NCBI GenBank assembly: GCA_041661965.1
Contig: JBAZTH010000003.1
Coordinates: 5,107-69,106 of the forward strand
DNA: 64,000 nt
Reading direction: 5' to 3'
From: Candidatus Margulisiibacteriota bacterium
Lineage (GTDB): Bacteria; Margulisbacteria; WOR-1; O2-12-FULL-45-9; XYB2-FULL-48-7
Shown: in pieces, positions 5,712 to 37,122 of the stretch
Position numbering within the stretch: the first letter of the stretch is position 1
Layout: every line of letters begins with the position of its first letter
The notes under the pieces: generated by a model
What the model was told of the DNA's origin: nothing
The model's input: only the letters and a program-made list of their open reading frames with translations
Database searches by the model: none
Made by a program: the position numbers and the translations under genes

Positions 5712-5712
5712 G

Positions 5713-19738: not shown

Positions 19739-19809
19739 TGGGGGATCGTCTAACGGTAGGACTGCAGCCTCTGGAGCTGCGTATCGGGGTTCGAATCCCT
19801 GTCCCCCAG
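19739..19809 (+). tRNA. tRNA-Gln (anticodon CTG)
   Basis: Hand-folded cloverleaf: acceptor TGGGGGA/TCCCCCA with U1:A72 and G73 as in tRNA-Gln; anticodon stem GCAGC/GCTGC with loop CTCTGGA; T-arm GGTTCGAATCC; CCA not encoded. Confidence 0.8.
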
Positions 19810-20177
19810 TCCTTCGACTCGGTCGCTTCGCTTCCTCGCTCAGGACAAGTTCCTCTTTCGAGTCGAAGGATGTCGAGCGAACGAAGTGAGTCGAGACTTC
19901 TAGATTACTTTATTAAATAAATCGGCTCTACTCCAACAACAGGGGCCAGCACCCAATTTAAGCACATAGTGCTTTGACTCTCAATCTGTAATTTTTAAAG
20001 TTTCTGAAGCCGAAGGCTCTTCGTCCGATCTTATTAGTAAATGTTGGTGTCATGGTCGAACTGCATTCTTTGCACTTGACCATTCCAGGGAATAGGAAAT
20101 GTTTAGCCGGATGCCATTTTGGGACCAATTTCCGTTTGTGAAGCGCTTGATCTGCTCAAATTGTTTGCCACTGATTA

Positions 20178-21083
20178 TTGGTTCATGAATACCCTGATAA
20201 ATCTGACCATTATGCTATACTTTCTGGCATGAATAATATTTTAGCAAAGGCAAAAATAATGTTTTTAAGGGTCGGGTTCTTCTTTGTTTTATTTGTTTAT
20301 TATTTGTTTTTACTGATGATGATTGAGTGTGTCATTTGGTTGTTTTTGGTAAATATATATCCAGCGTCAGCTTGCAATGCTGGCATGGGGAAGGCGACCT
20401 TGTGGGGCCTTATCCTCGCCTTAACTACGGTGGCGTATACTTTTCGAAGCATGTTAATAGCCCCTCCTTTTAGCAAGCAAAGCCTCTTGTTAAGTGCTTT
20501 AATATTGCTTCGAGCAACAGGGATATTTATTTTAATTTCTGGTTTGATTACCATTTTGCTGGTTAATTTAGAGAATGGCAAAGCTAACGTTAGAGAATAT
20601 TATAAGCAACAGACAATCAACTCAAACGTAGCAGAGGGTGTTGTTGGCAACTATGGATTTGATAAAGCAGAGAAAGTTCATGCAAATCTTATAACTGGTG
20701 CATCTGAAGGGAATATTGAGCAAATTAAGTATGCGCTACAAAACGGCGCAAATGTTAATGATGTGGTGGGGCCGGGCTTGTCAGCTTTGTATTATGCGGC
20801 TAGTAACGGCAAATTAAATGTAGTAATGTCCCTGATCAAACATGGAGCTGATATGGAATATCATAATGGTCCAGCCCAACGCACTGCATTGCATGAGGCT
20901 TCGTTGCGAGGGCATTATGATATAGTCAATTATTTGTTGAAAAATGGAGCAAATGTTAACTCAAGAAATAAATTTGATAGAACTCCTCTTTATTATGTGA
21001 CGAGTCCTCCCCCACCATTAAAATTACCTGAAAACCATCAGGAAATCGCAAAATTATTAAAACGCTTTGGCGGAATCATCTGA
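20178..21083 (+). CDS. Membrane protein with C-terminal ankyrin repeats
   Basis: N-terminal hydrophobic helices followed by 3 or more ANK repeats (NGANVNDVV...ALYYAASNGKLNVVMSLIKHGAD...TALHEASLRGHYDIVNYLLKNGANVN). AT-rich gene; start codon uncertain. Confidence 0.6.
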   Translation: MVHEYPDKSDHYAILSGMNNILAKAKIMFLRVGFFFVLFVYYLFLLMMIECVIWLFLVNIYPASACNAGMGKATLWGLILALTTVAYTFRSMLIAPPFSKQSLLLSALILLRATGIFILISGLITILLVNLENGKANVREYYKQQTINSNVAEGVVGNYGFDKAEKVHANLITGASEGNIEQIKYALQNGANVNDVVGPGLSALYYAASNGKLNVVMSLIKHGADMEYHNGPAQRTALHEASLRGHYDIVNYLLKNGANVNSRNKFDRTPLYYVTSPPPPLKLPENHQEIAKLLKRFGGII

Positions 21084-21593: not shown

Positions 21594-22316
21594 TTATTTG
21601 CTTTGCTCAAATTTGCGGCATAATTCGCTAAACCCGGCCGCTAGGGCGGGGGCTCTGGCCGCTTCATCATCATCGTGCTTAAAAAAGACGAACACTTTTT
21701 CCCACTTCTGGGTGCCGACCTTTTTTACCCATTGCGCCAGCTGGCGGTCTGTATAGTCCGTCCGGCGCAGGCGCAGGTAACCCCAGGTCGCGGTGCTGAT
21801 GAGCTCTGTGACCGGTTTTTCATCGGTATCCTCGAGGCAGAGGGAGAAATTTCTTTTCCTTAGCAGATCATAAGTCTCTTTATTGAGCCAGGTCGTGCTT
21901 CGGAAATCGAAGGCGCAGGCTATTTTGGGGGGGATATGGCCGATAAATTTCTCGAGTAAAGGGATGTCCTGGCGAAAGCTCGCCGGGAACTGGAAAAGGA
22001 CGGGGCCCAGCTTCTTGCCCAGGACCGAGACGATCGTGAAAAAATATCTGGCTTCTTTGCTGACGTTTTGCAGCCGTTTAATATGGGTGATCATTTGGGG
22101 TGCTTTAACGGCGAAGATAAATCCGGCCGGGACCTGGTCGGCCCAAGCCTCCACCACGTTGATTGTCGGCATCCGGTAAAAAGTGTTGTTTATTTCGACG
22201 GTCATCAGCCGGCTGGCGTAAAAAGAGAGCCTTTTCCCCGCTGAAATCTTTTCCGGATAAAAATTCCCTTGCCACTCCTTGTAGCCGTAGCCGCTGGTGC
22301 CGATATAATAATTCAT
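21594..22316 (-). CDS. DUF72 (YecE-like) family protein
   Basis: N-terminal YIGTSGYGYKEW...FYP signature of DUF72; 240 aa. Confidence 0.7.
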   Translation of the reverse strand: MNYYIGTSGYGYKEWQGNFYPEKISAGKRLSFYASRLMTVEINNTFYRMPTINVVEAWADQVPAGFIFAVKAPQMITHIKRLQNVSKEARYFFTIVSVLGKKLGPVLFQFPASFRQDIPLLEKFIGHIPPKIACAFDFRSTTWLNKETYDLLRKRNFSLCLEDTDEKPVTELISTATWGYLRLRRTDYTDRQLAQWVKKVGTQKWEKVFVFFKHDDDEAARAPALAAGFSELCRKFEQSK

Positions 22317-23848
22317 GGCGACTGCCTCCGCCCGGCTCTTTCGCGGATTGCCTCGGCTGGAGATTTATCTTCGCGGAACCTCACAAATTTCGGCTGCCGC
22401 ATCACGCCGTCTTTTGTCCATTCCGTAAAAGCGACTTCGCAAACAAGCTCCGGCTTTACCCAGGTGACGGTTTCACTCTCGGGCGGGAGGGCGCTAAGCG
22501 GACAGTTCTTCCGAACCAGGGGCCGAAGCCGGTCGTAGATCATTTTGATATTTTGCCCGCCAAACCCGCCGCCTGAATGGCCGACATAAATAAGTTTTTT
22601 GTTTTCGAACGCGCCCAAGACCAGGCTGCCGAAATATCCCCTTGAGCCGCGGGGCCGGGTGAAGCCGACAATAACGCAATCTTGCGTCGGTTGGTACTTT
22701 ATCTTCAGCCACAGTTTGCTTCTGACGCCCGCTTGGTACCGGCTCTTCGCATGTTTGGCGACGATTCCCTCCAGGCCTTGTTTTTTCACCGCCTTGAAAA
22801 AAGAGACGCCGTCCTTTTTTACGTGCTCGGCATACCTGACGCGCGCGTCGTCAGGCAGGACCTGTTTAAGGAGTTCTTTCCTTTTTCGGAGCTCCAAACC
22901 GGTCAGGTCGCGGTTTTGGTAAAACAGGATATCAAATACGTAATAGATCAAACGGCCGGGAACCCGGCGCCGATAATCCTGAAGCAGCTGAAAAACCGGT
23001 TTGCCGGTCTTATCGACGGCGACCACCTCGCCGTCCAGCACGGCGTTAAATTTGAGCTTTTTCAGGGATTCCACGATCCCGGGAAATTTGTCCGCGAGCG
23101 AGCGCTGGTTGCGCGAGTAGAGCAAGACGTTGTTAGGGCTGATCTCGGCGATCGCCCGGTACCCGTCCCATTTGACCTCGAAGATCCAGTCGTCGTTGTC
23201 GAACGGCTTGCCGGCGGCAGTCGCCAGCATTGGCCGGACTTTGTGCGGCCTTGCGCCGGGCTGGGCAGGTGTTTTACCCGCCGGTTCCTCAATGGGCTGG
23301 TGGGAAAGCACGGACCGGTCGCGCTTCAGAATGTCGGCGGTAGATGCGTACCGGTCTTTTTTCTTTATCAATAGCCAGGAGTTTTTGTCCCAGCGCGTCT
23401 TGATCAGCGCGAATTCCCCTTTTAGTTTTTCCCCCGCCAAGATGAATTTTAGATCGCCTTTCTTTAAGCCTTGCAGCAGGAGGGCTTCGCTTTTTTTCTT
23501 GTCCAAGGAAGAGAGCGGGCTGTAAAATCCCCGGTCCCAGAGCAGAACTTTACCGGCGCCGTAATTACCTTCGGGTATGACCCCCTCGAAATCTTTATAA
23601 TCAAGAGGGTGGTCCTCGACCATGACAGCCAGCCGTTTTACGGCCGGATCAAGGGAGGGCCCTTTGGGAACGGCAAAGCTTTTCAGCACCCCCTGCATTT
23701 CCAGCCGGAGGTCGTAATGAAGGCGTCTAGCGGCATGCTTGTGCACGACAAAAATCGGGTATTCTCTCTTGTCTTTGCTGTCGAACCCCCCCGGAGGTTC
23801 CGGGGTTTTATTGAAATGCCTCTTTTTTTTATATTTACTTAAGGTCAT
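22313..23848 (-). CDS. ligD: ATP-dependent DNA ligase LigD: 3'-phosphoesterase domain plus ligase domain
   Basis: N-terminal PE domain (HYDLRLE...VPKGPS); ligase motif I EVKWDGYR, plus motifs III-V; 511 aa. Confidence 0.8.
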   Translation of the reverse strand: MTLSKYKKKRHFNKTPEPPGGFDSKDKREYPIFVVHKHAARRLHYDLRLEMQGVLKSFAVPKGPSLDPAVKRLAVMVEDHPLDYKDFEGVIPEGNYGAGKVLLWDRGFYSPLSSLDKKKSEALLLQGLKKGDLKFILAGEKLKGEFALIKTRWDKNSWLLIKKKDRYASTADILKRDRSVLSHQPIEEPAGKTPAQPGARPHKVRPMLATAAGKPFDNDDWIFEVKWDGYRAIAEISPNNVLLYSRNQRSLADKFPGIVESLKKLKFNAVLDGEVVAVDKTGKPVFQLLQDYRRRVPGRLIYYVFDILFYQNRDLTGLELRKRKELLKQVLPDDARVRYAEHVKKDGVSFFKAVKKQGLEGIVAKHAKSRYQAGVRSKLWLKIKYQPTQDCVIVGFTRPRGSRGYFGSLVLGAFENKKLIYVGHSGGGFGGQNIKMIYDRLRPLVRKNCPLSALPPESETVTWVKPELVCEVAFTEWTKDGVMRQPKFVRFREDKSPAEAIRERAGRRQSP

Positions 23849-24750
23849 ACATTAGGCAGCCTTTGTTTTTTGGTTAAGACTTCCCGGAAAAGGTCCCCGT
23901 CTTTTCCCACTCTTTTAACGGCTTCAGCCGCCAGGACCTGGAACTTATCCGGTTTTTTCAGTTTTAATAATTTCTCGAGCTCCGGCCATTTAAGCGGGCA
24001 AGAAACATACGGTTTTTCCTCGGCGCGCAGGGAATAAGCGCAGACCATCGTCTTGGAGGCGTCATTTTGCGACCAGTTGATAAAAACCTTGTTCCGGCGA
24101 TATTTTTTGTCCATCCTGGCGGTGACCAGATCGGGATATTTATTCTGCATCGTTTCCGCTACCGCCCGGGAAAAGCTCTTGGTATTTTCGAAGCTCGTCC
24201 CTTTTGAATTCAGCGGGACAAACACGTGCAGGCCTTTTCTGCCTGAAGTTTTTACCCAGCTTAAGAGGTGCTGGCGGGCCAGCAGCTCTTTTAGAATAAG
24301 CGCTACTCTGGCGCAGTCCAAGATGTCCGCGCCGTCGCCGGGATCAAGGTCGAAAACCACGGCGTCGGGGGTGCGGTAAGAAGCGGCCCTGGCCAAAGGG
24401 ACATGAAGTTCGATCGACGCGAGATTTTCCAGCCAGATGAGAGTTTCCAGATTATTGGCCAAACAATAAGCTATTTTCTTGTCTTTGCCGTACGGGAGCG
24501 CCGCTGTTTTCACCCAGTTGGGGCGGTGCGCGGGACACCGTTTTTCAAAAAAATATTCCTGGTCGACTCCCTGCGGATAACGTTTTAGGGTCAAGGCCCG
24601 ATCCTTAAGGTGCGGGAGAATGAAACGGGCGACGCGGCTGTAGTATTCAAGAATACGCACTTTAGTAAAACCATAGGCAGGGTAGAGGATTTTTTCGGGG
24701 TTGGACAGGGACAACTCCCGATCATTGATGCTTATGTTTTTTTTGTTCAT
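23845..24750 (-). CDS. LigD polymerase/primase (Pol) domain protein, encoded as a separate gene
   Basis: LigD-Pol-like sequence (VVFDLDPG, GRKGLHVFVPL); 301 aa. Confidence 0.75.
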   Translation of the reverse strand: MNKKNISINDRELSLSNPEKILYPAYGFTKVRILEYYSRVARFILPHLKDRALTLKRYPQGVDQEYFFEKRCPAHRPNWVKTAALPYGKDKKIAYCLANNLETLIWLENLASIELHVPLARAASYRTPDAVVFDLDPGDGADILDCARVALILKELLARQHLLSWVKTSGRKGLHVFVPLNSKGTSFENTKSFSRAVAETMQNKYPDLVTARMDKKYRRNKVFINWSQNDASKTMVCAYSLRAEEKPYVSCPLKWPELEKLLKLKKPDKFQVLAAEAVKRVGKDGDLFREVLTKKQRLPNV

Positions 24751-25552
24751 CGGCTTTTCTCATCTTGCGCATGCTTTCCTGCAGGGCGGCCATGAGATCG
24801 GCCATCCCTTCCTCCGCCTCTTCGTCTTCGATCTCCGGGGCTTCGACCGCCGCTTTTTTCCCTATTTTCTTTTTTATGAGATCAAGAAAAGCCTGCCGGC
24901 GCCGGTCCGAATATTTTTCCGGGGCGAAATCAGCCGTCATCTCCTTAATGATTTTTTTGAGGCGATCTTTTTCTTTTTCCGTGAATCCGGCCTTTTTCCG
25001 GTCCTTGCCGGGAATTATTTCATCGCTGTAATGCAGAGTATTCAGTTCCAGGGCGCCGTCCCTGTTCTTGATTAGGGCCAAGTATCCCCGCTCGTCGAGC
25101 ACGAATTTCGCGATCCCGGCCTTATTGGTCTTTTGCAGGGCCAGGGCGAGAAGCCGATAGGCTTTTTCCCCGCCTTTTAAAGGAACGAGATAATACGGGC
25201 GTTCGTAATAAATGGGGGCGACCTCATTAAGGTCGATGAATTCAGATATTTCAATGGTGCGGCTCCGCTCGGGTGAGACCGATTCCAATTCCTCGTCGGA
25301 GATCATGATGTGCCGGCCGGGCGCTATTTCATAACCCTTGGTAATTTCCTCGGGAGGGACAATGGCTTCATCTTCGGGGCAGAACATTTTCCGCTCCAGA
25401 GGAGAATAGTCCTTGTCATGCAGCAGGCGGAAGGCGATCAGCCCGGGGGCCAACGCCCGGACCAGTCGTACGGGGATCGCTACCAGGCTGAAGCTGATTG
25501 TCCCGCTCCAGATCCCCTGCGGAGCTGTTTTTGGGGGTGAAGTCTTTTTCAT
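24722..25552 (-). CDS. ku: Ku protein (NHEJ), copy 1
   Basis: Ku core beginning IWSGTISFSLVAIPVRL; lysine-rich C-terminal tail; 276 aa. Confidence 0.8.
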   Translation of the reverse strand: MKKTSPPKTAPQGIWSGTISFSLVAIPVRLVRALAPGLIAFRLLHDKDYSPLERKMFCPEDEAIVPPEEITKGYEIAPGRHIMISDEELESVSPERSRTIEISEFIDLNEVAPIYYERPYYLVPLKGGEKAYRLLALALQKTNKAGIAKFVLDERGYLALIKNRDGALELNTLHYSDEIIPGKDRKKAGFTEKEKDRLKKIIKEMTADFAPEKYSDRRRQAFLDLIKKKIGKKAAVEAPEIEDEEAEEGMADLMAALQESMRKMRKADEQKKHKHQ

Positions 25553-26322
25553 CAGGCGGCCGCTTTCTGCAGGCTTTCTTCCAGTACCTCAAGCAGCTTG
25601 CTGGGAACGGTGGCTGTAAGGTGTTTGGGCTTGGAAAGCCTGATCTTTTCACCGCGCGCTTTTTTCCCTATCAGAGCGCGCAATTTTTTCTGATGCTCAT
25701 CGGTATATTTTTCGGGCTGAAAAGGGACGGTCAGCTTTCCGATCAATTCGCCGGCAATGTTCAGCTCTTTTTCGGATATGGAAAACGACTCCAAGCCCAG
25801 GGATTTTGCCCGGATTATCTCATCCGCGAACCTTAAGACGATCAAATTGAGCGATTTACCGTCCGACCGCAAGGCGCCGAGGTGTGCTCGCTTTCTCATC
25901 GTCCAGGTGCAAAGGCCTTGGCGGCCCGTTTCCTTCAGCGCCGCCGCCAGCAGGCCATAGACTTTGCCGGGAGCCGCCGGTTCAAGGCGATAAGTCTGTC
26001 CCATGAAAACCGGATCGATCGCATCGGTCTTGACAAATTCGTGGACCGCAATCGTCCGGCTTGGTTTGGGTTCCGTTTGTGCAAGTTCTTCAGGGGAGAT
26101 CGGGATATAGCTTCTTTCACCAACCCGAAAACCTTTTAACTGCTGGTCTGATGAAACCGGCGTTTTTTCGTAGGCGCAGATCATCTGCTGACGGAGTTTT
26201 ATCCCGTCGGTTTTGTGGAAGAGATGGAGCTGTATTCGGTTCTGGCTAACCGCGGTAAGCAGTTTGACCGGCACATTCGTGGTTTTAAAATGTATGTTCC
26301 CAATCCATAAAGTTTGTGCCAT
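25552..26322 (-). CDS. ku: Ku protein (NHEJ), copy 2 (tandem paralogue)
   Basis: LWIGNIHFKTTNVPVKL Ku core; about 256 aa counted from MAQTLW; adjacent to copy 1 with a 1-nt overlap. Confidence 0.75.
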   Translation of the reverse strand: MAQTLWIGNIHFKTTNVPVKLLTAVSQNRIQLHLFHKTDGIKLRQQMICAYEKTPVSSDQQLKGFRVGERSYIPISPEELAQTEPKPSRTIAVHEFVKTDAIDPVFMGQTYRLEPAAPGKVYGLLAAALKETGRQGLCTWTMRKRAHLGALRSDGKSLNLIVLRFADEIIRAKSLGLESFSISEKELNIAGELIGKLTVPFQPEKYTDEHQKKLRALIGKKARGEKIRLSKPKHLTATVPSKLLEVLEESLQKAAA

Positions 26323-26455
26323 AAATAACCTCTTATGAATACAGGCGATTATATCATAGGTCAAATAGCGGAGGTAGAGCGATATTTGATCTAGCTTGGG
26401 CGCAGGACGAATTGCCTAAGTCGGGAAATTTTGCTAAAATAGATTAATATTCGAT

Positions 26456-26905: not shown

Positions 26906-28270
26906 TTAGTTTCCCCGCAGCATTTTATCGAGTTCATCCGGCGAGGCGTTGGTCACCTCAAAAAGCAGTCGTCCCAAACCTTCATTTTTGATCTCTTCGC
27001 GATTATTCCAGACCCAGGCGCCGAAATTGAGGTAATGGCGGCTCTTTCCCATGTATTCCATTAGCTCGATAAAAGAAGAGACTTTCGATCGTGTTCCATC
27101 GGCAGATTCTTTTTTAAGGAGAGTTTGAATTTCCGGATTACCGATAGATTCGAACATTCTGGCTAGCCTCTCCCGGCCGTGCCGTTCAAAGACCCCTTTG
27201 ATCCGGTCATAATTTTGGACCAACGCATTCTTTAGCCAATCGGGATAAGGGTCCTGCTTTTCAACTTCCATATTTTGTTCCACAAATTGGTCCCGTTCAT
27301 AATCGGTGTAGCCGCCTTCTTCGGTGACCGTGTACGAGCGATAAAGTTTAACCCCCATCTCTTCCAGCCGGGCGACCCGCCGGTCATATTCCTCCTGGAT
27401 AATGGCGCCGTTTTCATCGTACAAGTGCGGCGTCGACAGGGGGAGGGGGAGAGTTTCGCTTGGGAGCTCTTCAACCAAACGAATGCCCATGTTCCCTTCC
27501 CGGACATTGGGGCGGGAGGCGAATTGCATGTCCGGAACGTTAAGATAGCAAGTTATATTTAAATCTGGCTTGTCCATGTAAGGGGTTACTGTCCAGGTGA
27601 CTCGGTCGCCAGTCAGCTGTTCTCTGGCCTGTTGCCATTCCTCTTCAGTTTGAACCAGGAACTTCCTGCCGGTCAGCTCGCTTAGCCGTTTGGCAAATTC
27701 CATGGCGTCGTCCAAACTCACATAAGTGACGGTTTTCCCTTCATTGGCCGGATCAGAAAGGAATTCCCTCAATTTGTCAGCGTTGTGTCCTTTGATTTTA
27801 TAACCGGCCATTACCTGCTTAAACAGAGTAACCGCGACTTCCCCCCTCATGATTTTTCTTTTGCCTGAAAGGGTGAGCATTTCGGGAAGTTCCAAGGCAG
27901 TCTGTTGGACGGCGGCTGGGAACATCTTTTGGATCCCGGCCAGGTTTTCTTTGTCGCCCAGAATGAATAAATGCTCCTCATTTGTCAGAAAGGCCGACAG
28001 CTCCAGGGAAACGAAGATCGTTTCGGCGGTTTCGCCGCCGGCCGCCCTTGTTTCGAGCGAAGGCTGCATGCCCAGCAGCCTGATTTTGGCGATCCGGTCG
28101 AGATGGATGCCATTGAGTTCGATCCTCTGTCGTTGGCAGAGCGCGGTGAGGCAGGGGCCAAGCCGCTCCTTGCCGATCGCAAAAGAAGAGATATCGACAA
28201 CTCCCCGCAAAGCCGGCAGGGCTCTTTGGGACAAGTGAATTATTGATTTATTGGTTACCGGCGTGATCAT
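26906..28270 (-). CDS. Paralogue A (454 aa) of a five-member family: conserved N-terminal domain, degenerate FGE-sulfatase (SUMF1-like) motif region, unique C-terminus
   Basis: N-terminus MITPVTNKSIIHLSQRALPALRGVVDISSFAIGKERLGPCL shared with paralogues B-E. Central LPEM...GEVAVTLFKQVMAGY and TVTYVSLDDAMEFAKRLSELTGRKF..TEEEW resemble the FGE/SUMF1 signature (KYEVT..F..F...GY ; VSWxDAxAYCxWLSxxTGKxYRLPTEAEWE). Confidence 0.6.
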   Translation of the reverse strand: MITPVTNKSIIHLSQRALPALRGVVDISSFAIGKERLGPCLTALCQRQRIELNGIHLDRIAKIRLLGMQPSLETRAAGGETAETIFVSLELSAFLTNEEHLFILGDKENLAGIQKMFPAAVQQTALELPEMLTLSGKRKIMRGEVAVTLFKQVMAGYKIKGHNADKLREFLSDPANEGKTVTYVSLDDAMEFAKRLSELTGRKFLVQTEEEWQQAREQLTGDRVTWTVTPYMDKPDLNITCYLNVPDMQFASRPNVREGNMGIRLVEELPSETLPLPLSTPHLYDENGAIIQEEYDRRVARLEEMGVKLYRSYTVTEEGGYTDYERDQFVEQNMEVEKQDPYPDWLKNALVQNYDRIKGVFERHGRERLARMFESIGNPEIQTLLKKESADGTRSKVSSFIELMEYMGKSRHYLNFGAWVWNNREEIKNEGLGRLLFEVTNASPDELDKMLRGN

Positions 28271-28273
28271 AGT

Positions 28274-30010
28274 TTATTTGTCCTTAAATGATTCGATTTC
28301 CTTGAAAAGCGCCAAAATGACGGGACGCAGGTTCAGTGTCGCGGAACAGCGTAACTGATTCCGGGAAGTTGACCAGACTAAAGGGATCTCCCCGTCAGGC
28401 AGATCGGTGAGACGAATCGTCGTTGGGGAAAAATAGCTTTCAGCGGGTGAAAAAACGATCGTCATTTTGTTGGTTTTGAGCTTAATATTCAGGTAAACAA
28501 TTTTTTCCGTTACTTTAGTTGGCGCGCCGTCTTTTTTCTCTTCATACCTGGCCGGGATGTTGTGGATCACAAAGACAAACTCATTTGGATGGGCGTTCAA
28601 AACTCTCAACTGGTAAGGGCCTGCCTTAAAGAACTTTTCCCGTCTGAAAATACCCGGCTCGGCCACGCGCAGGGCGGCACAAAGAGTTGTCCAGGAAAGG
28701 TCTGTTGATTTTAACAATTCAAGACGAAGGGGTTCAAATTCCGATGGTAGGGCTTCGACAATCTGGCGGAAGTTGAAATCCCTGATATAGTTCCAGCCGA
28801 CCGGGCCATTGCGGGTCTGGGTCCGATTGGGCAGAATTTCCCAGCTTAAAGAGATGTTTTCCAGATCATCCGGAGAAACCAGGTAGGTGTTCAAGCCTTT
28901 ATTGGGAGCGCTTAATTCAATCCCGTTTTCGACCAGCCTGGCGGTCAAAGAGATTTCAGCTGTCCCGGCGGAGGAAGATGGTTCGCTCCCTAATGAGCCG
29001 GTTTCAAATCGCGTGGCGACGTTATGGATCAAAAGCGTCAGGTTGGCCGGATTAGGGTCTAATATTTCAATCTTATGAGGGCCGGCTTCAAACTTTTTTG
29101 CTTTTTCGGCCGGTTGGTCGACCAGCGAGATCCCTTGACCCCGCAATTGCCGCCGCATTGCTCTTAGCCAGGTTTCTGAAAGCGGATCGGCATTGACGTC
29201 TTCGACCAAAACAATCGAACTGCTGGTCGAGCGCTCGTTGAGGCCGCAAGTGTTCAGACCGCCGGCTCTGGAGAGATGACGGCGAAAATATATTTCTTCG
29301 TCTTCGTCAGGCCTCGATTCGGTCAGCGCCCATGAGGGGCGAAACTTAGCCGAATCCTTTTTCAGCGCTCTCAATATTTCCTGATTAGTCGGTACCCGGA
29401 ACCTTCGGCCGGTCAGCTCGCTTAAGCGCTTGGCAAACTCTCTGGCGTCCAATAAGTTGGCAACCAGCCTGTTTGCTGCCTTTGCCGGTTCGCTAAGTTC
29501 CGCCCGCAGCAGAGCGGCATTTTGGCCAACAATGAGATAGCCCTCCATCACCTGCTTGAATAAGCCAACTGTAACGGCGCTTGTCATAATGCGGAGTTGG
29601 TCGGAAACGTCAAACATTTCCGGTAGCGCGAGTTGGGGTTGAGGGGAGGAGAGCAGGGCCGGATTGGAAAATGTCCTGGCCAACAAGCTGACGTTTTGTT
29701 TATCGGCTAAAAGAAAAAGCGCCTGTTCTTGCGTTAGAAAAAGCTCAACCTGTAAATCAGCGAAGATATTTTCCGCAATGGCAAAGCCGGCCGCTCTTTT
29801 TTCCAGAGATGGGGTCATTCCCAGCAACCGGATCTTAGCCGTATTATCGAGATATATTCCCTTTAGCTCAATCCCTAAAAGCCCTCTTAGGCAGGGGCCA
29901 AGCTTTTCTCTCCCAAGGGCAAAATAAGATATCTCGACCACCCCCCGCAAAGCGGGCATGGGCTTTTGCGGCAAACGGATGATCGATTTGTCGCTTACCG
30001 GCGCTATCAT
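28274..30010 (-). CDS. Paralogue B (578 aa), same family, longest and most divergent C-terminal region
   Basis: N-terminus MIAPVSDKSIIRLPQKPMPALRGVVEISYFALGREKLGPCL; LALPEM...VTVGLFKQVMEGY; LLDAREFAKRLSELTGRRFRVPT. Confidence 0.6.
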   Translation of the reverse strand: MIAPVSDKSIIRLPQKPMPALRGVVEISYFALGREKLGPCLRGLLGIELKGIYLDNTAKIRLLGMTPSLEKRAAGFAIAENIFADLQVELFLTQEQALFLLADKQNVSLLARTFSNPALLSSPQPQLALPEMFDVSDQLRIMTSAVTVGLFKQVMEGYLIVGQNAALLRAELSEPAKAANRLVANLLDAREFAKRLSELTGRRFRVPTNQEILRALKKDSAKFRPSWALTESRPDEDEEIYFRRHLSRAGGLNTCGLNERSTSSSIVLVEDVNADPLSETWLRAMRRQLRGQGISLVDQPAEKAKKFEAGPHKIEILDPNPANLTLLIHNVATRFETGSLGSEPSSSAGTAEISLTARLVENGIELSAPNKGLNTYLVSPDDLENISLSWEILPNRTQTRNGPVGWNYIRDFNFRQIVEALPSEFEPLRLELLKSTDLSWTTLCAALRVAEPGIFRREKFFKAGPYQLRVLNAHPNEFVFVIHNIPARYEEKKDGAPTKVTEKIVYLNIKLKTNKMTIVFSPAESYFSPTTIRLTDLPDGEIPLVWSTSRNQLRCSATLNLRPVILALFKEIESFKDK

Positions 30011-31344
30011 GAGCTTTTAATCTCCGATAGATCAGACGCGGCTTTCAAGACTTCAATATACGGCTCTATTAATTCCGCGAGCTTCTTTGGACACCGCGCC
30101 AGCAGGCTGGCGATCCGCTCCATTCCGTTTTCTTCCCGCAAAAACACCCCCAGAAGCTCCGAAGCTTCTTTGGGGAGGAGGTCTTGAACCGCGACGACGA
30201 CACAGGCCGAATCGTCCGCCAGGCGCTGGAAAAGGGGGAGGGCGTAGTCGGGGTGGTTCACGGCCAATTGGTGCATGATCCTGGGCATTACTTTAAAATT
30301 AACATTGTCCCCCCTGATCATCGTCTTTAATATTTCGTTGACATCAGCCTGGTCGATGAGCGAGAGCGCGGCCACGGCCCTTCGGTGTTCCACAACACTC
30401 GCAAGATTAAAGGCCGCATGGCCGAGGTCAAATCGGAGCCAATTAGCCAGATCCTCTGTCTTTCTGTCATCCGTGCGATTGATATATCGATCCATGATTG
30501 AGGGGACGGTGGCGGATGTCCCAATTGGAAGAACCTCGACCAGGCGGATCGCGTTGCTGGAAAAGCGCTCCCAGGGAATATAATTATCGCGGCCAGAGCG
30601 GCCCCGACAGCGGAGAACAAAAGAAGGTTTTTCGTAAGAGGCGCCCGCAGATTGTGTCATCGTCCATTCCCAATTTGAGCCGAACAAATCATCTGTTACC
30701 GCTTCCCATTCTTCTTCGGTTGGGAGCCTGAATTGCCTGCCGGTGAGATCGCTTAATTTCCGGGCAAATTCTACGGCATCATCTAAGCTTGCCCAAGTTA
30801 ATGTGCCGCCTTCTTTTTCTGGATCGGCAAGAATTTTTCTAAGTTCCTTGGACCAAGCTCCTTCAAAGCTATAGCCGGCCATCACCCGCTTGAACAAGCT
30901 GACCGTTACTTCATACTTCATGATCATGAGGCCGTCTGAAATAGGGACCATTTCGGGCAAGGCAATTTGCGGTTGGCCGGCCGCAGCGGGAGGAATCGCC
31001 CCCCTGACCATCAGATCGTCATTCTGTTTGTCGCCTAGAATATAAAGCTGTTTATCTTGCGTTAGGAAGGCTGACAGTCCCAGCGAAGCGAAAATAGCCT
31101 CGGGTGTTTCGGCGACAGTTCTCGTTGCTAGATCAGGGCGCATTCCCAGGAGCCTAACTTTGGCGGCGGTATCGAGCTGAATCCCTATTAGTTTGATCTC
31201 TTGTCGTTGGAAAAGCTTGGTGAGACAGGGGGCGAGATTATCTTTGCCGATAGCAAAAGAGGAAATACTGGCCACTCCCCGCAAAGCCGGCAGGGCTCTT
31301 TGGGACAAGTGAATTATTGATTTATTGGTTACCGGCGTGACCAT
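30007..31344 (-). CDS. Paralogue C (445 aa); best-preserved FGE-like motif (TLTWASLDDAVEFARKLSDLTGRQFRLPTEEEWE); C-terminal domain shared with paralogue E
   Basis: First about 70 coding nt are identical to paralogue A (1 mismatch); C-terminal about 90 aa nearly identical to paralogue E (MHQLAVNHPDYALPLFQRLADDSACVV...). Confidence 0.6.
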   Translation of the reverse strand: MVTPVTNKSIIHLSQRALPALRGVASISSFAIGKDNLAPCLTKLFQRQEIKLIGIQLDTAAKVRLLGMRPDLATRTVAETPEAIFASLGLSAFLTQDKQLYILGDKQNDDLMVRGAIPPAAAGQPQIALPEMVPISDGLMIMKYEVTVSLFKRVMAGYSFEGAWSKELRKILADPEKEGGTLTWASLDDAVEFARKLSDLTGRQFRLPTEEEWEAVTDDLFGSNWEWTMTQSAGASYEKPSFVLRCRGRSGRDNYIPWERFSSNAIRLVEVLPIGTSATVPSIMDRYINRTDDRKTEDLANWLRFDLGHAAFNLASVVEHRRAVAALSLIDQADVNEILKTMIRGDNVNFKVMPRIMHQLAVNHPDYALPLFQRLADDSACVVVAVQDLLPKEASELLGVFLREENGMERIASLLARCPKKLAELIEPYIEVLKAASDLSEIKSS

Positions 31345-31352
31345 GATTGTTT

Positions 31353-32222
31353 TTATTTGCTCGATGGCATTAATTGAGAAAAGAAAGCCATTCCTTCTAA
31401 TACTTCCGGGACCTCTTCGGGCGTTATATTTAATTCTTTTGCTAAAACGTCCGTACCAAGCTTTTGGGTGTGGCCGATCAGTTGCGCGCCGCTTATTGCT
31501 ATGCCTTTGTTTGCATTAGAAAGGTCAGCTATCACTAATTTTAATTGTTCGAACATATTGGAGTAGGTACCACACATATAAATCTGGAATACGAGCAGTC
31601 CCATCAGGGCCGCGCTTTGCGGAGACTCCCGATTGTTAACGACTTCCCTGATCAACGCTACTCCACTTGCCCCGTTCCCCTTTATTAAAATCTCTCGTAT
31701 TAAATCAGCCAGAAAACGTTCTTTTTTAATGAGGTGGTCAGGATAAATAGTTTCTTCCGCTTCACGTATTTGCCCGGTGATTTGAAGAGGGGGAACGCGA
31801 TATTCCAATGCTAATCTAACGTCGGATTTAATTATGCCGGCTATTCTGTCGGGACCAATCTCTGCGGCCATCGGTTTAATATTCCGTTTATCCCCTAAAA
31901 TGTAAAGCGCCTCATCCTGTGTCAGGAAAGCTTGGAGCTGTAAACCGGCGAAGAGGTTGCCGGCGGTCCCATCGGCTGATCTTGTTTCGAGCGAAGGCTG
32001 CATGCCCAGCAGCCTGACTTTGGCGATCCGGTCGAGGTGAATGCTGTTAAGTTCAATCCCCTGTTGTTGGCAGAGTGCGGTGAGGCAGGGGCCGAGCCGC
32101 TCTTTACCGATCGCAAAAGAAGAGATCTCGACCACTCCTCGCAGTGCCACTCTCATTGTAAAAGCTGGCACGGCCTTTTGAGGCAAGCGAATTATTGAAT
32201 TACCGGTTTTTGGCGCTACCAT
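31353..32222 (-). CDS. Paralogue D (289 aa): shared N-terminal domain only, followed by an unrelated C-terminal region
   Basis: MVAPKTGNSIIRLPQKAVPAF..LRGVVEISSFAIGKERLGPCLTALCQQQ; lacks the FGE-like segment. Confidence 0.55.
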   Translation of the reverse strand: MVAPKTGNSIIRLPQKAVPAFTMRVALRGVVEISSFAIGKERLGPCLTALCQQQGIELNSIHLDRIAKVRLLGMQPSLETRSADGTAGNLFAGLQLQAFLTQDEALYILGDKRNIKPMAAEIGPDRIAGIIKSDVRLALEYRVPPLQITGQIREAEETIYPDHLIKKERFLADLIREILIKGNGASGVALIREVVNNRESPQSAALMGLLVFQIYMCGTYSNMFEQLKLVIADLSNANKGIAISGAQLIGHTQKLGTDVLAKELNITPEEVPEVLEGMAFFSQLMPSSK

Positions 32223-33547
32223 GAACTTTTAAGCTCCGATAAGTCGGACGCGATTTCCAATAATTCGATGTGCGGCATAATTAATTCCGCGATCTCCTTT
32301 GGACACCGCGCCAGCAGGCCTACGATCCGCTCCATCCCGTTTTCTTCTTTTAAAAACACCCCCAGAAGCTCCGAGGCTTCTTTGGAGAGGAGGTTTTGAA
32401 CCGCGAAGACGACACAGGCCGAATCGTCCGCCAGGCGCTGAAAAAGGGGGAGGGCGTAGTCGGGGTGGTTCACGGCCAATTGGTGCATGATCCCGGCCAT
32501 TTCTTCAAGATCGCCGTGCGTCAGCATCCCCTTAAATATTTCGTCGACGTTCAGAGTGATCCGCGACAAGGCTGTGGCTGCTTGGGTGGGGTCAAGATAT
32601 TTGAGCTTTGTGGCCGCAGTGCCGAAGTCGCTGTAGCGAAGCTCGTTGACTAAATCATTTAGTCTGTTTTCTTCCACACAGCGGTCATACAGGCCCATGA
32701 TTGGGGGCCGTGCGGCGGGAGGATCAGATAAAATATCTTCGACTAAACGAATCGAGATATCCATGGAGCGGGTCTCCGGTTTTATTGTCTGGCGGTTGCC
32801 GGGGTCGACGCCGTCGTACAGGAGGCAAAGAATATAACCCTCGCTGTTTTTTGTCTCCGTCCATGTAAAATTAAGGCCTGATAACTTGTCCCTTTCCTGG
32901 AACCATTCCTGCTCGGTTTGAACTCTGAACTTTCTGCCGGTAAGCTTGCTTAAACGGTCCGCAAATTCCCTGGCATCAATTAAACTTACATAAACTATTG
33001 GATCATTTGCTCTTGACGGGTCATTAAGGATATCTCTTAGTGAATCGGCGAAATTGCCGGTTATTACGTATCCCCGCATTATCTGTTTGAACAAGCCGAT
33101 CGTCACTTCGTCCCTCATGATCGCGAGCTTGTTTGAAATAGTGATCATTTCGGGCAGGACGATTTGCGGTTGACTTGCGATCGCGGCCGAGGCAGTCGTT
33201 CCCTTGGCCATCAGATCGATGTTTTCTTTATTGCCCAAAATATACAGCGCCTGCTCCTGGGTCAGGAAAGCCGAGAGCCTCAAGGAGGAGAAAAGAACTT
33301 CGGCGGATTCAAAAAGCTCGGTCCGCTTCTCCAGCGAAGGGCCCATTCCCAGCAATCTGATCTTGGCGGTATTATCAAGTTGAATGCTTTTGGGTGTGAT
33401 CCCCAATCGTTGGAAGAGAGTGGTGAGGGCCGGGCCGAGCCGCTCTTTGCCGACGGAAAAGGAGGAGATCTCGACTATCCCCCGCAGAGCTGGTAGGGCT
33501 CTTTGGGGCAATCGAACGATCGATCTATTGGTGACCGGCGCGACCAT
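32216..33547 (-). CDS. Paralogue E (443 aa), same family; start overlaps the ATPase stop by 1 nt
   Basis: MVAPVTNRSIVRLPQRALPALRGIVEISSFSVGKERLGPAL; IVLPEM...EVTIGLFKQIMRGY; IVYVSLIDAREFADRLSKLTGRKFRVQTEQEW. Confidence 0.6.
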   Translation of the reverse strand: MVAPVTNRSIVRLPQRALPALRGIVEISSFSVGKERLGPALTTLFQRLGITPKSIQLDNTAKIRLLGMGPSLEKRTELFESAEVLFSSLRLSAFLTQEQALYILGNKENIDLMAKGTTASAAIASQPQIVLPEMITISNKLAIMRDEVTIGLFKQIMRGYVITGNFADSLRDILNDPSRANDPIVYVSLIDAREFADRLSKLTGRKFRVQTEQEWFQERDKLSGLNFTWTETKNSEGYILCLLYDGVDPGNRQTIKPETRSMDISIRLVEDILSDPPAARPPIMGLYDRCVEENRLNDLVNELRYSDFGTAATKLKYLDPTQAATALSRITLNVDEIFKGMLTHGDLEEMAGIMHQLAVNHPDYALPLFQRLADDSACVVFAVQNLLSKEASELLGVFLKEENGMERIVGLLARCPKEIAELIMPHIELLEIASDLSELKSSW

Positions 33548-36500
33548 TAATCAGGGATCCTTATCGTCAGGATTTTGTTCTCGCCTTCGGACCGGCCGAT
33601 CAGTTCAACCTTCGCGCCTCGGGCCATATTTGCGTAATCTTGCTGGATTTTGGCGATGTCAACCGTTCCCGGCAGGACGAAGGCGACATCTATTCCATCG
33701 GCCGATCTGGTCAGCGAGAGGCTGATCGGCGGGAACTTGGGCGCTTCGGGCAATTCAAGCAGAGTTTTAATGATCTCGGCCTTATATTCCGGGTCCAGAT
33801 TATTATTAGTTAACAGGTCGTTGAATGAGATGATTTGCGGGTTGGCTGAAACAAAAAATTCTCCTATCAACTTATCAAGCGGGGCCATCATTCTCGGCGG
33901 TTGGGATGAGGCTAAGAGAGACGCGGCCAGGTCCTGGATCAACAACACGGCCCCGTTATTCTTAATAATATTGTCGCTAGGATTGAGGATAGGGGCGAGC
34001 GCTTCCGCCAGGGGCTTGGTCGGCGGAGAAAGTTCAATCTTTATCTCTCTGTTCGCGATGATGCTGAAAACAAAGCTGGTGCCGGTTTTACCGGCCTTGA
34101 TGGCCAGAGAGCGGCTGGTCCCGTCGATATATTTCTTCCTGAAGTCCGCCAGTCTTGGCCCTTCCTCGCGGGCTTCTCTGTCCGCGTTATAAACAACGAT
34201 CTGGATATCGTTGGCCCGGCTTATCCGCCAACGCACGATTATCGGTTTGTCCCGCTCATCGCCGGTGAGTTTTTCTTGCCGGTCTTTGGCGGCATAGATC
34301 AGGGTGGAGAGGGCGCGCAGGACGGCTCCCTGTTCGGTTTCGGGCAAGCCGCGGGCCGTCAACAATTCCTTAAGACCGGCCTGGGCTGATTTGATTTTCG
34401 GATCGACTTTGGCCTTGTCTCCGGGGGAAAGAGTTATTTCCCAGTCCGGCTTGTTGGTAAATTGCGCTGCTTCTTTCGCCTGTTGGAGTTCGTCGGCAAT
34501 CGCTTGGGCTAGCGCGACTATCCCGGGATTGCCGCTTTTGAGAAGCTCGGGGAGTTCCGCTTCGAGCGCTTGCCGGTCTTCGGTTGTCAGAGCCTGTTTG
34601 ACCTTGGCTAGCGCTTCGGCCCGGGCTGTTTCGTCCTCCGGCCAGGGATTTTCTTCCAGCCAGAGCTCAACTTTTTCTGCCCCTTTGGGCGGGGAGAGGA
34701 GCCCGCCGATCATGGCGGCGTCGACTTCCGCTCCGGCCGCGACCAGTTCGCGGATTTTGCGTAAAATTATTCCTTTGCGGCCGTGAATTTGGGCGATATC
34801 CATCTGGCGACCCCGCTCCGACTTGTCGGTGGTTTCTTCAAAGCGAAGTTCCCCATCCCGGACCGAGATCTTGATAATATGTTCGCCGTTTGGCATATTA
34901 TTGACCAGCCAGGCGGAAAAAGTATTGTCGAGATGCTCTTCAAGCGCTTGCTTTAGCGGCCGGGCGCCCCCGGCCAGGTCGATTCCTCTTTCCATAATAT
35001 ATTGCTTGACCGCCTGGTATTCAGTCTCATCCCCGCCCAGGACGACCTCAAGCTTTTGGTCGGTTTCTACCTGGGCGACAAAATTTTTCAACTGGATATC
35101 GGCGATGGCCGAGAGGTCGGCTTCGTTCAGATAATCAAAAGGAACAATATCGAGCCGCCGGAGAAAGGCGGGGGGATATTTGTCGCGGCCATATTCATCT
35201 TTCTGGCTTTTAAATGAATTAGCGGCGATCTCGCGGTTTGCTTTGGTCAACCCGTCGGCGATCTTCTTAGCTTCTTCCGGCGCTTTGCCGGCGGCCAGCT
35301 CCCTGATCTGTTCGGGCTTGAGCATTTGGGCTTCCCCCTGGTTCGAGGTCATGATGACCACTACGTCTTCGAGAGAATATTTTTCACCGGTCTCTTTGTT
35401 CTGAACATAACCCTGGTCGAGCATCACTAATAATGATTCATAAACATCCGGGTCGGCTTTGTCCGCTTCGTCAAGGAGGAGGACCCCGTGGCGGTTCTCT
35501 TTTCTTTTAAAGAGCTCCGGCAGCATCCCTTTGGTTTTGTCAAACCCGACAAAACCGGGATCGGGGCCGAAGAGCAGGGTCTTTCCAGCTTTCCCTTCGC
35601 ACTGGGTCATATCGATCGTCATGACCTTTTGCGCGTTGCCGAATAACAGCCAGGCCAGGGTGTGGGCCAGTTCGGTTTTGCCGGTCCCCGTCGGTCCGGT
35701 GAACATGAAAGCGGCGATCGGCGACTGTTTTTTGCGTCGGCCGGTCTTATACCGTTTAACGGCGCCGGCAACTTTCCCGACCGCCTGGTCCTGTCCGATG
35801 AAGCGGGTCCTGATCCGTCCCTCGATCTGGCTAAGCTGTTGAATGTCCAATTCATCCATTTTGCGCAGGTCAAGGCCGGCCATTTTCGAGGCCTGGGCGC
35901 GAATATCGTCTTCGGTAATTGTCAGGCAGCCGGACTCAGCCAGTTTGCGCACAACTTTTTCCACCAGCAGTTCGCTTTCCAGGTAAGCGGCGACAATCCC
36001 GATGACCGATTTCCAGATACCCTCTAATTGCGGGCGGGTGGCTGGATCGGCGGCAAATTCGATCAGGTCGTTGATATCGTCGGCCAGCTTTTTCGGGGTT
36101 TCCGTTACGATCCTTCTTAAGTCGCCGAGCTGGCTCCGTTTACTGCCGATCGCTTCTTTGATCAGGGCGATCGTCGCGTCCGGCGGGAAGCGGTTGACGA
36201 TCAGCGGCGAGAGGTCGATCGCCGCCTGGCGCGAAGCGGGCGGGACCTCGATCTTTTCCACTCCTCTTAGTTTCTCCAGGATGACCGGAATGATATTCCG
36301 GACCAGCCGCCGCAGCTTGTCGCCGGTCAGCGATTCGATATTGATCGGATCGCCGAACCGCCGTTTGGTGGCGTCGTTATTAAAATAGCGATAGAATTCT
36401 CCCGTTGTCGTCGCACCCACGACCTGGAAACCGGGGCGGGCGAGGGGTTCCTTCAACAGTTCGAGAACGCCCGCTTGTTCCATCAGGTGGAGTTCGTCCA

Positions 36501-37122
36501 TCAGGAGGTAAACGGTGTAGCCCTGTTTGAAGGCGTCTTGGACCGTTTCGACGATCTGTTTCAACTGCGGTTCGAGGACCGAGCGGTCGAGATCTTTCAT
36601 CCCCAGGCTGAAGAAGTAGGTTTTTTCCTCATCCTTCCACTCCTGGGCCAGCCCTTCGACGATCGCCGTTTTTCCGACGCCGGTGTTGCCGATCAGAATA
36701 GCGTTGCTGCCGCCCTTCAGCCGTTTGGAAAGCTCCGCCATTTCGTCGCTTCGTTCAAAGACCGGATCGAGATCGCCGGCGCGGGCTTCGCTGGTAATGT
36801 TGCGCAGGCCAAGTTCTTCCAGCTTTTCGATCGGGGTTTTCGGCTCGCCGTCACCCGCGCCGTTGACGCCGTTGGTTCCGTTAACCGCGCCGTTGCTTTC
36901 GAGGCCGGCCGGATTTCTCGCGATCAGGCTTAATTCATCGCGGATCAGGGTCCCGGCGGGCGTCAGGCTTAGCAGGTTGTGAGTCGGTGGGGCAATTTCT
37001 TTTGTTATTCGTCCTCCGGGTAACAAGCTCGGGTGGTTTACAAACGTGCTGCGAGCGGCGATGGTCAGTTCCCTGATCAGGCGGACGCTTTGTCTGATCG
37101 GCAGTCTAGTTAGAGCTTCCAT
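33547..37122 (-). CDS. Divergent Clp/Hsp100 (ClpA/ClpB)-like double-AAA+ ATPase, 1191 aa, with a non-canonical about 130-aa N-terminal region and an about 450-aa C-terminal extension
   Basis: NBD1 Walker A ILIGNTGVGKTA and Walker B YLLMDELH; NBD2 Walker A FTGPTGTGKTELA, Walker B VLLLDEADKA, and the GARPL sensor-2 motif characteristic of ClpA/B D2. No recognisable Clp_N domain; C-terminal region is unique. Confidence 0.75.
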   Translation of the reverse strand: MEALTRLPIRQSVRLIRELTIAARSTFVNHPSLLPGGRITKEIAPPTHNLLSLTPAGTLIRDELSLIARNPAGLESNGAVNGTNGVNGAGDGEPKTPIEKLEELGLRNITSEARAGDLDPVFERSDEMAELSKRLKGGSNAILIGNTGVGKTAIVEGLAQEWKDEEKTYFFSLGMKDLDRSVLEPQLKQIVETVQDAFKQGYTVYLLMDELHLMEQAGVLELLKEPLARPGFQVVGATTTGEFYRYFNNDATKRRFGDPINIESLTGDKLRRLVRNIIPVILEKLRGVEKIEVPPASRQAAIDLSPLIVNRFPPDATIALIKEAIGSKRSQLGDLRRIVTETPKKLADDINDLIEFAADPATRPQLEGIWKSVIGIVAAYLESELLVEKVVRKLAESGCLTITEDDIRAQASKMAGLDLRKMDELDIQQLSQIEGRIRTRFIGQDQAVGKVAGAVKRYKTGRRKKQSPIAAFMFTGPTGTGKTELAHTLAWLLFGNAQKVMTIDMTQCEGKAGKTLLFGPDPGFVGFDKTKGMLPELFKRKENRHGVLLLDEADKADPDVYESLLVMLDQGYVQNKETGEKYSLEDVVVIMTSNQGEAQMLKPEQIRELAAGKAPEEAKKIADGLTKANREIAANSFKSQKDEYGRDKYPPAFLRRLDIVPFDYLNEADLSAIADIQLKNFVAQVETDQKLEVVLGGDETEYQAVKQYIMERGIDLAGGARPLKQALEEHLDNTFSAWLVNNMPNGEHIIKISVRDGELRFEETTDKSERGRQMDIAQIHGRKGIILRKIRELVAAGAEVDAAMIGGLLSPPKGAEKVELWLEENPWPEDETARAEALAKVKQALTTEDRQALEAELPELLKSGNPGIVALAQAIADELQQAKEAAQFTNKPDWEITLSPGDKAKVDPKIKSAQAGLKELLTARGLPETEQGAVLRALSTLIYAAKDRQEKLTGDERDKPIIVRWRISRANDIQIVVYNADREAREEGPRLADFRKKYIDGTSRSLAIKAGKTGTSFVFSIIANREIKIELSPPTKPLAEALAPILNPSDNIIKNNGAVLLIQDLAASLLASSQPPRMMAPLDKLIGEFFVSANPQIISFNDLLTNNNLDPEYKAEIIKTLLELPEAPKFPPISLSLTRSADGIDVAFVLPGTVDIAKIQQDYANMARGAKVELIGRSEGENKILTIRIPD

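Follow-up and report, generated by a model that had tools for sequence, protein, structure and literature searches.

Gene conversion tracts in a tandem array of five paralogues that follows a divergent Hsp100-type ATPase gene in a Margulisbacteria genome

Have the five tandem paralogous genes at positions 26906-33547 of a 64,000-nucleotide stretch of the Candidatus Margulisiibacteriota bacterium genome GCA_041661965.1 (contig JBAZTH010000003.1, positions 5,107 to 69,106; hereafter, the window) exchanged sequence with each other, or do the short patches of near-identity that they share have another origin? The original prediction, made from the DNA sequence alone, was that of exchange among these paralogues, and the follow-up analysis bears it out on three grounds, namely, the homogenization of synonymous sites, the location of the tracts within homologous sequence, and the reversal of tree topology relative to an outgroup. 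All three tracts go back to homologous recombination (gene conversion) between paralogues that are direct repeats on a single chromosome. The array itself is older than the tracts, and its first and last genes have remained positional orthologues of those in a related genome. Taken as a whole, together with the mechanism, direction, and function proposed below, this explanation is given a probability of about 0.8. The five genes lie end to end on the minus strand, in the order E, D, C, B, and A from the preceding ATPase gene, and all are complete with intact reading frames. The genes and the tract copies that they carry are as follows (lengths in amino acids [aa]; N-domain, shared N-terminal domain; FGE, FGE-sulfatase).

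32216-33547, minus strand: paralogue E, 443 aa; N-domain, truncated FGE-like domain, and helical "CE" module
31353-32222, minus strand: paralogue D, 289 aa; N-domain followed directly by the "D" module, without an FGE-like domain
30007-31344, minus strand: paralogue C, 445 aa; N-domain, truncated FGE-like domain, and helical "CE" module
28274-30010, minus strand: paralogue B, 578 aa; N-domain, truncated FGE-like domain, and two copies of the "B" module
26906-28270, minus strand: paralogue A, 454 aa; N-domain, truncated FGE-like domain, and "A" module; last gene of the array
28200-28270, minus strand: tract 1 in A, codons 1-24, nearly identical to the copy in C
31274-31344, minus strand: tract 1 in C, codons 1-24, nearly identical to the copy in A
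30007-30293, minus strand: tract 2 in C, matching E and spanning the final ~90 codons of its helical module
32219-32505, minus strand: tract 2 in E, matching C
28047-28209, minus strand: tract 3 in A, codons about 21-75, MEGABLAST match to D
31981-32143, minus strand: tract 3 in D, MEGABLAST match to A

The clearest case is that of A and C, whose first 70 or so coding nucleotides had been described as alike but for one position. This is what was found: 69 of 70 nucleotides are identical between 28201-28270 and 31275-31344, with a longest exact shared run of 67 nt. Over codons 1 to 25 there are no synonymous differences in 14.2 synonymous sites (synonymous divergence, dS, of 0), whereas the proportion of synonymous sites that differ (pS) is 0.51-0.74 further along the same pair, and dS beyond the tract ranges from 0.85 to saturation. 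Sliding-window identity falls from 98% to ~68% past the tract; on the other side the identity ends at the start codon, which is also where homology ends. At the synonymous positions common to A and C, paralogues B, D, and E differ from both, and since the agreement is not seen in these three genes, a shared nucleotide-level signal is no explanation for it. A permutation test of our own implementation in the style of GENECONV (10,000 permutations over 179 polymorphic sites in the five paralogues' N-terminal region) identified a run of 31 concordant polymorphic sites in the A/C pair (global P<=1e-4), and in this region no pair was significant beyond A/C and A/D.

The A/D pair accounts for the adjoining part of A. 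As had been claimed for about 150 nt of A near 28040-28200, this segment closely resembles D, with 143 of 161 positions (88.8%) identical between 28040-28200 and 31974-32134 (offset 3934); MEGABLAST gave 90.2% over 163 nt for 28047-28209 versus 31981-32143. Sliding-window identity is 84-95% in the tract, compared with 72% before and 54% after it, and the fragment score of 49 was significant in the same permutation test (P<=1e-4). Over codons 26-85, dS is 0.47 and nonsynonymous divergence (dN) is 0.06, and dS is saturated beyond. A is a mosaic in which the A/C and A/D patches abut at codon 24/25, within an invariant ALRG block (codons 20-24). The relationships of A switch at this point: sites at which A equals C and not D outnumber those at which A equals D and not C by 18:0 in codons 1-24, and the ratio is 12:43 in codons 25-85 (Fisher test, 1.6e-9). 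Just upstream of the ALRG block where the two tracts meet, D carries an 18-nt (6-codon) insertion after codon 19, encoding AFTMRV, which may constitute a heterology barrier to A/D exchange.

The remaining tract lies at the opposite end of the genes, in the helical module shared by C and E. A tract of ~200 nt had been reported there with about 95% identity; the tract is real, but its identity is 92.5% (186 of 201 positions between 30080-30280 and 32292-32492, offset 2212). BLASTN aligned the last 292 nt of both genes at 87.7%, or 345 nt at 85.5% once the start of the next gene is counted. The core of the tract is 96-97% identical with a pS of 0.07, against 0.5-0.75 elsewhere, and its 5' edge is sharp, with identity dropping to ~50% upstream of codon 361. 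The outgroup for this comparison was the syntenic locus JAQUOB010000012 of another Margulisbacteria metagenome-assembled genome (MAG), hereafter L001, whose first array gene is the positional orthologue of E. Across the CE module's upstream half, E pairs with this orthologue at 56 sites, versus 22 and 22 for the other two groupings. Within the tract, C and E agree against L001 gene 1 at 48 sites, E and L001 gene 1 agree against C at 16, and the remaining grouping occurs at 7; the switch between the two regions is significant (Fisher test, 3.9e-8). As E keeps its orthology to L001 upstream and C pairs with E in the tract, C must predate the exchange and must later have received, or come to share, its 3' end. 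Paired 63-codon open reading frames (ORFs) are present on the plus strand over the tract, as noted originally. They differ at 13 of 192 nt, and since eight of the nine changed codons are nonsynonymous in that frame, they are antisense by-products, in agreement with their initial description as spurious.

In the codon alignment of the five paralogues, synonymous divergence collapses inside the tracts only. Divergence is thus not uniform along the genes, the pattern named at the outset as speaking against exchange; sliding windows instead show sharply bounded tracts of high identity. Gene conversion in tandem families is textbook biology, and rRNA operons are an example of the concerted evolution to which it gives rise. 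The phenomenon seen here at the DNA level is ordinary concerted evolution of this kind, sharing with such families the short, non-reciprocal-looking patches of near-identity in diverged paralogues, the homogenized synonymous sites, and the change of topology along the gene. It differs from them in that the paralogues are tandem and have only a part of their length in common and in that a common domain is homogenized while unrelated C-terminal modules are re-assorted. Short patches of identity have also been traced to gene conversion in other bacterial multigene families, as in the RF1/RF2 exchanges (PMC8022953, PMC4530459).

The age and direction of the events can be estimated by comparison with L001, from which the window is separated by a dS of 0.55 in the conserved AAA core of the ATPase. 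Judged by synonymous divergence, the A/C tract (dS 0) and the core of the C/E tract (pS 0.07) arose after this split, and the A/D tract (0.47) is about as old as the split. The description of the exchange as "ongoing" is therefore true in part only. Over the whole N-domain, A is closest to its own L001 orthologue (81% and 75%), and in the C/E tract E is nearer than C to L001 gene 1 (16 versus 7 sites), which tentatively suggests that A was the donor to C and to D and that E was the donor to C.

Several observations weigh against this account of the tracts. A dS of 0.47 makes the A/D tract as old as the L001 split, and an old partial duplication is possible there instead of conversion. The C/E tract is without a well-conserved 5' flank, which would imply either illegitimate resolution at one end or fast later divergence of the flank. 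One genome cannot prove non-reciprocity or direction, and as the A/C and A/D patches abut at codon 24/25, A may itself be the recipient of one of the events.

The low-identity flank of the C/E tract and the age of the A/D tract would also be expected if the genes had been mosaic from birth, assembled by partial duplications and illegitimate domain shuffling, with the tracts as their least-diverged remnants; moreover, architectures in this family do change by insertion and loss of whole modules. Such an origin is nonetheless unlikely. Homology is continuous around the A/C and A/D tracts, with a diverged homologous 3' side, so that their joins are homologous; E retains its orthology to L001 gene 1 upstream and is joined by C in the tract only, which places the origin of C before the exchange; and synonymous divergence changes 5- to 10-fold at the boundary. 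It is also very improbable that no exchange took place and that the tracts were preserved by purifying selection, acting on the protein or on a signal in the nucleotides, for example an RNA structure or a region of translation initiation. The N-domain is certainly conserved (19 invariant columns among 10 sequences), and coupling signals are plausible in genes so tightly packed and overlapping. However, the A/C pair alone is synonymously identical, with B, D, and E differing at those positions; the first 24 codons of the L001 paralogues are just 65-82% identical to A or C; the tree reverses across the breakpoints relative to the outgroup; and selection on the protein cannot bring pS from about 0.6 down to 0.07.

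Repeats are a classic cause of misassembly and the source of the sequence is a MAG, which would favor repeat collapse or chimeric joining in the metagenome assembly. However, the longest exact repeats (67, 52, and 37 nt) are far below k=141, the five reading frames are intact, and the MEGAHIT contig k141_661446 in ENA (L005, 264 kb) matches 21,278 nt of the window (20007-41284), the whole operon included, at 100% identity, although the independence of the two assemblies is uncertain, as reads may be shared or samples related. On a 24-kb contig of another MAG at NCBI, the encoded proteins A, B, D, and E are identical to those of the window; C alone of the five differs there, by 3 aa (G33C, one Pro->Thr, and one Glu->Val). 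An assembly-collapse artefact, the other outcome foreseen at the start as fatal to the idea, is thus largely ruled out by the matching contig and by repeats shorter than k, and its probability is close to negligible. The same holds for programmed variation, either by a cassette-based phase or antigenic variation system or by a diversity-generating retroelement (DGR) acting on the lectin-fold domains. These folds, of the FGE/C-type-lectin type, are the usual targets of DGRs (PMC7159879), they are present here, and a tandem array with conserved 5' ends resembles cassette systems. However, the tracts are situated in the N-domain and the helical module, outside the lectin-like domain, and the array consists of five full-length genes in one operon on which two assemblies agree base for base. 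In the 64-kb window, tblastn and blastn searches with all modules detected the five complete genes but no silent copy or fragment of the family elsewhere, and no pair resembling template and variable repeats (TR/VR), nor any other long repeat pair, was present beyond the paralogue tracts and a set of RCC1 repeats; the 17 window ORFs scanned against Pfam included no reverse transcriptase or invertase. The "cassettes" of the original prediction are thus not supported as worded: the window has no cassette machinery, silent copies, or other repeat pairs, and the two assemblies show no heterogeneity.

For the gene conversion that is favored here, a mechanism can be proposed. The conserved N-domain and FGE-like segments, repeated directly every 0.9-1.7 kb, would serve as homology anchors. 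RecA-type strand invasion would start in the conserved blocks, leading to intrachromosomal or sister-chromosome conversion, and the heteroduplex would extend until homology fails, at the start codon in the case of A/C and in the zone of ~50% identity in that of C/E. Other tract ends would fall within the most conserved block, ALRG (codons 20-24), and the resulting patches would be of ~70, 165, and 290 nt. In the longer term, the same anchors would permit unequal exchange, with gene gain and loss and the re-assortment of C-terminal modules, and therefore arrays of variable length. Recombination at repeated conserved segments is a general and recurring property of this gene family, because other arrays also hold tracts of 90-93% identity and modules have been re-assorted between genomes.

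Each paralogue starts with an N-domain of ~115 aa, a new alpha/beta domain without a Pfam match or a fold match in the PDB. A profile search identified it in 32 proteins among 1.84 billion representatives. It is situated at the N terminus of its carriers, and about three proteins have an additional, weaker copy placed upstream, with E-values of 8e-07 for P0018, 2.7e-04 for P0022, and 0.026 for P0024 (genes 418-1890, 7208-8596, and 5382-7208 of locus L006, respectively). Four of the five paralogues (A, B, C, and E) have a truncated FGE-sulfatase/C-type-lectin-like domain next to the N-domain, on its C-terminal side. Paralogue C matched the Pfam family FGE-sulfatase PF03781 with an E-value of 9.3e-08 and 32.5 bits (cut-off, 23.3), over profile positions 23-136 of 255 only, so that the C-terminal half of the profile is missing; the score of E (22.1) is under the cut-off, and A, B, and D did not match the family. 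The likeness to the SUMF1/EgtB/PvdO family (PF03781) consists of the passing of the Pfam gathering score by C and a weak fold resemblance to PvdO and ToxD, whereas a match to the whole domain failed and C covers about half of the profile. As half of the FGE domain alone is matched, NCBI has probably over-annotated C in naming it "SUMF1/EgtB/PvdO family nonheme iron enzyme," and an enzymatic role is doubtful.

The C-terminal modules are mutually unrelated: the A module, two copies of B, the all-helical, ARM-like CE module of C and E, and the D module. An AlphaFold2 model of full-length E shows three domains (predicted local distance difference test score [pLDDT], 79), among them a compact alpha/beta domain at residues 134-271 (pLDDT, 85-93). 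A Foldseek search with this model yielded no match at E<=1e-3 and weak resemblances to ARM-like proteins (FliG, MgtE) and to PvdO/ToxD. Neither NCBIfam nor PADLOC had a match for the paralogues or for a 330-aa protein encoded at the head of the operon, the ATPase obtained generic AAA+ matches only in PADLOC, and a scan of viral contigs found no relatives. Among relatives that carry the N-domain, it is combined with FGE domains and with propellers of the WD40 and PQQ types, and relatives such as P0003 have an additional full-length FGE domain.

In four of the loci examined, the gene of a divergent ClpB/ClpC-like ATPase is directly followed by an array of N-domain genes, with five genes in the window, four in L001, three in L009, and five in L010. 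Homologues of the 330-aa gene are kept in L001 (65% aa identity) and L010, at the equivalent position. L006 has nine N-domain genes in tandem, and L003 and L004 are fragments of further arrays. The architectures in the window, from A to E, are N+FGE+A, N+FGE+2xB, N+FGE+CE, N+D, and N+FGE+CE, and those in L001 are N+CE+extension, N+2xFGE, N+FGE+D, and N+B+A. The D module matches residues 291-446 of L001 gene 3, the B module matches residues 141-259 of L001 gene 4 as well as a 317-aa protein of L003, and the A module matches the C terminus of L001 gene 4. Protein P0013 shares 84% identity with the extension found in L001 gene 1 and is without the CE module, and P0015 has the architecture N+FGE+linker+A. 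L001 shows segmental mosaicism of its own. In L009, tracts of 93.5% (8368-8737 versus 9775-10142) and 92.9% identity (5229-5497 versus 6747-7015) are shared by neighboring genes; the first pair stands at the starts of two genes that the N-domain profile did not match, and a further kind of common N-terminal segment is therefore suggested.

Diversifying selection, to which the mosaic pattern had been attributed at first, is not shown by these comparisons: between the orthologues of the window and L001, dN/dS is about 0.3, with a dN of 0.18-0.28 and a dS of 0.6-0.9 for most modules, and dS between paralogues is saturated. The segments that had been called hypervariable are different, nonhomologous C-terminal modules and architectures and not fast-evolving alleles. 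The AAA core of the ATPase has a dN of 0.04, compared with 0.21-0.28 for the N terminus and C-terminal extension of the ATPase, the 330-aa protein, and the N-domains, so that the core is almost frozen, whereas the rate of evolution is five to seven times higher in the ATPase termini, the 330-aa protein, the N-domains, and also the modules. The fast divergence of the ATPase termini and N-domains is compatible with co-evolving interfaces, and these substitution rates give no evidence for positive selection.

The array is preceded by two further genes, and the starts and stops of all these genes overlap or are a few bases apart (the stop of the 330-aa gene overlaps the start of the ATPase gene), for which reason they are read as one operon.

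37106-38098, minus strand: gene of the 330-aa protein, first gene of the operon; no Pfam or NCBIfam match (from the ORF list and translation)
33547-37122, minus strand: divergent class-I Clp/Hsp100 ATPase, 1191 aa (Pfam AAA_2 and ClpB_D2-small; ClpC structure PDB 3j3s)

The two AAA+ modules of the ATPase (residues 87-764) align to ClpC in PDB 3j3s with an E-value of 5.5e-67, and in this alignment both sets of Walker motifs are recognized (GNTGVGKT and LLMDELH in D1; GPTGTGKT and LLLDEADKA in D2). The GFVGF pore motif of D2 is present, whereas the KYRGEFE pore loop of ClpC D1 aligns to a gap. The ClpP-docking VGF loop is missing, with "KYVGFN" of ClpC aligning to "AAGKAP." The best 25 of 28 Pfam matches do not include Clp_N, and homology to ClpC begins at residue 87. 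All NCBIfam equivalog cut-offs (ClpB, ClpV, ClpA, ClpG, and ClpK) were missed, by a wide margin for ClpB (268.8 versus 1232 bits) and ClpV (242.7 versus 885). The N terminus (residues 1-86) and the C-terminal extension of ~430 aa are unique, with no detectable relatives, although the homologue search with the extension missed even the parent protein and is uninformative. A literature search on Margulisbacteria and ClpB gave no match.

What the array may do can be approached from the logic of the operon, in which the 330-aa protein, a stand-alone Hsp100-type unfoldase, and an array that would serve this one motor are encoded together. We infer that the paralogues may be interchangeable receptors or clients of the ATPase. 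It is tentatively proposed that the dedicated Hsp100 unfoldase might recognize the N-domain as a handle, with the modules as possible target-binding parts; modules of binding type (FGE/lectin-like, ARM-like helical, and the WD40 and PQQ propellers of relatives) would then specify different targets. Alternatively, the paralogues may simply be clients or cargo of the motor. More speculatively, the locus could represent an undescribed Hsp100-centered system, in which an unfoldase is combined with three to nine recombining receptors that dock by their N-domain, like interchangeable substrate receptors, which possibly acts in conflicts with phages or with hosts and whose repertoire is renewed by conversion and module swapping. 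Three results speak against such functions. Aligned by hhalign to the ATPase and to the 330-aa protein, the N-domain profile gave probabilities below 1%, so that no argument from homotypic adaptors is available. The Pfam and PADLOC scans found no catalytic, effector, or toxin domain, which leaves "effector" readings unsupported. Finally, as a point against functional coupling, the family member in L002 is solitary, in a housekeeping neighborhood and with no ATPase on its 8.7-kb contig.

Several known systems resemble this one in part. In NTPase-centered conflict systems, effector-associated adaptor domains occur together with domains of the FGS, beta-propeller, or repeat type (Kaur, Burroughs, Iyer, Aravind 2020, PMC7159879). 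The resemblance is architectural only, and consists of one NTPase gene linked to several proteins with a small adaptor-like N-terminal domain in common, to which modules of FGE/lectin-like, WD40/propeller, or helical-repeat type are joined; the paralogues are many and their architectures shuffled. By contrast, the motor here is a two-ring Clp/Hsp100 protein and not a STAND, MoxR, or GTPase protein, the NTPase has no homotypic adaptor, and no effector, vWA, or peptidase component is recognized; Hsp100 is unmentioned in that article, and ClpB appears in its reference list only. Clp adaptors such as MecA, McsB, and ClpS offer another parallel, as a Clp/Hsp100 motor, for which ClpC is the nearest relative of solved structure, is encoded here with proteins that could each join a constant part for docking to a variable one for recognition. 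Nevertheless, neither in sequence nor in fold is there a likeness to MecA or ClpS, and the ATPase is without the Clp_N domain and the ClpP-docking loop. To our knowledge, there is no Clp protein with five to nine candidate adaptors in tandem. The constant N-terminal part, the swappable C-terminal modules, and the recombination at the conserved part are also reminiscent of polymorphic toxin, Rhs, and CdiA-CT loci. In contrast to these, neither domains of toxin or immunity type nor orphan, promoterless cassettes were identified, the modules are binding-like, and every copy is complete.

The conversion result alone is modest and unsurprising, and the rare, undescribed operon of an Hsp100 protein plus an array is the part of more interest. 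If the N-domain is a handle for the motor, the ATPase would be the first Hsp100 equipped with multiple specificity factors that recombine, and chaperone-type unfoldases would be linked to the logic of diversifying conflict systems.

The GC content of the array (0.48-0.52) is no outlier, and there is therefore no sign of recent horizontal acquisition; a scan of the locus for promoters and terminators gave background level only. On the 3' side of the array there is a convergent tRNA-Ile gene, followed by a nonhomologous end-joining (NHEJ) cluster on the minus strand (window 22313-26364) with two tandem Ku paralogues (24722-25552 and 25552-26364), a LigD Prim-Pol protein (23845-24750), and a LigD phosphoesterase-ligase (22313-23848). 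The NHEJ set is complete, and the tRNA-Ile gene alone stands between it and the array. On the 5' side of the operon, genes for a radical-SAM/HhH protein and then a DUF4130 protein (39088-41009, minus strand) are located, and between this pair and the operon lies a divergently oriented gene of 250 aa without a family match (38302-39054, plus strand).

Further away, the segment 20001-22000 has a low GC content (0.40, versus 0.47-0.57 elsewhere), contains an ankyrin-repeat gene (20178-21083, plus strand), and lies beside a tRNA-Gln gene (19738-19812); it could have been acquired as an island. At 9374-10395 there is a tandem repeat with a period of 150 nt and five to six copies of 62-83% identity, within a minus-strand gene (9357-10724) that has seven RCC1 repeats (beta-propeller) in Pfam and thus encodes an ordinary repeat protein.

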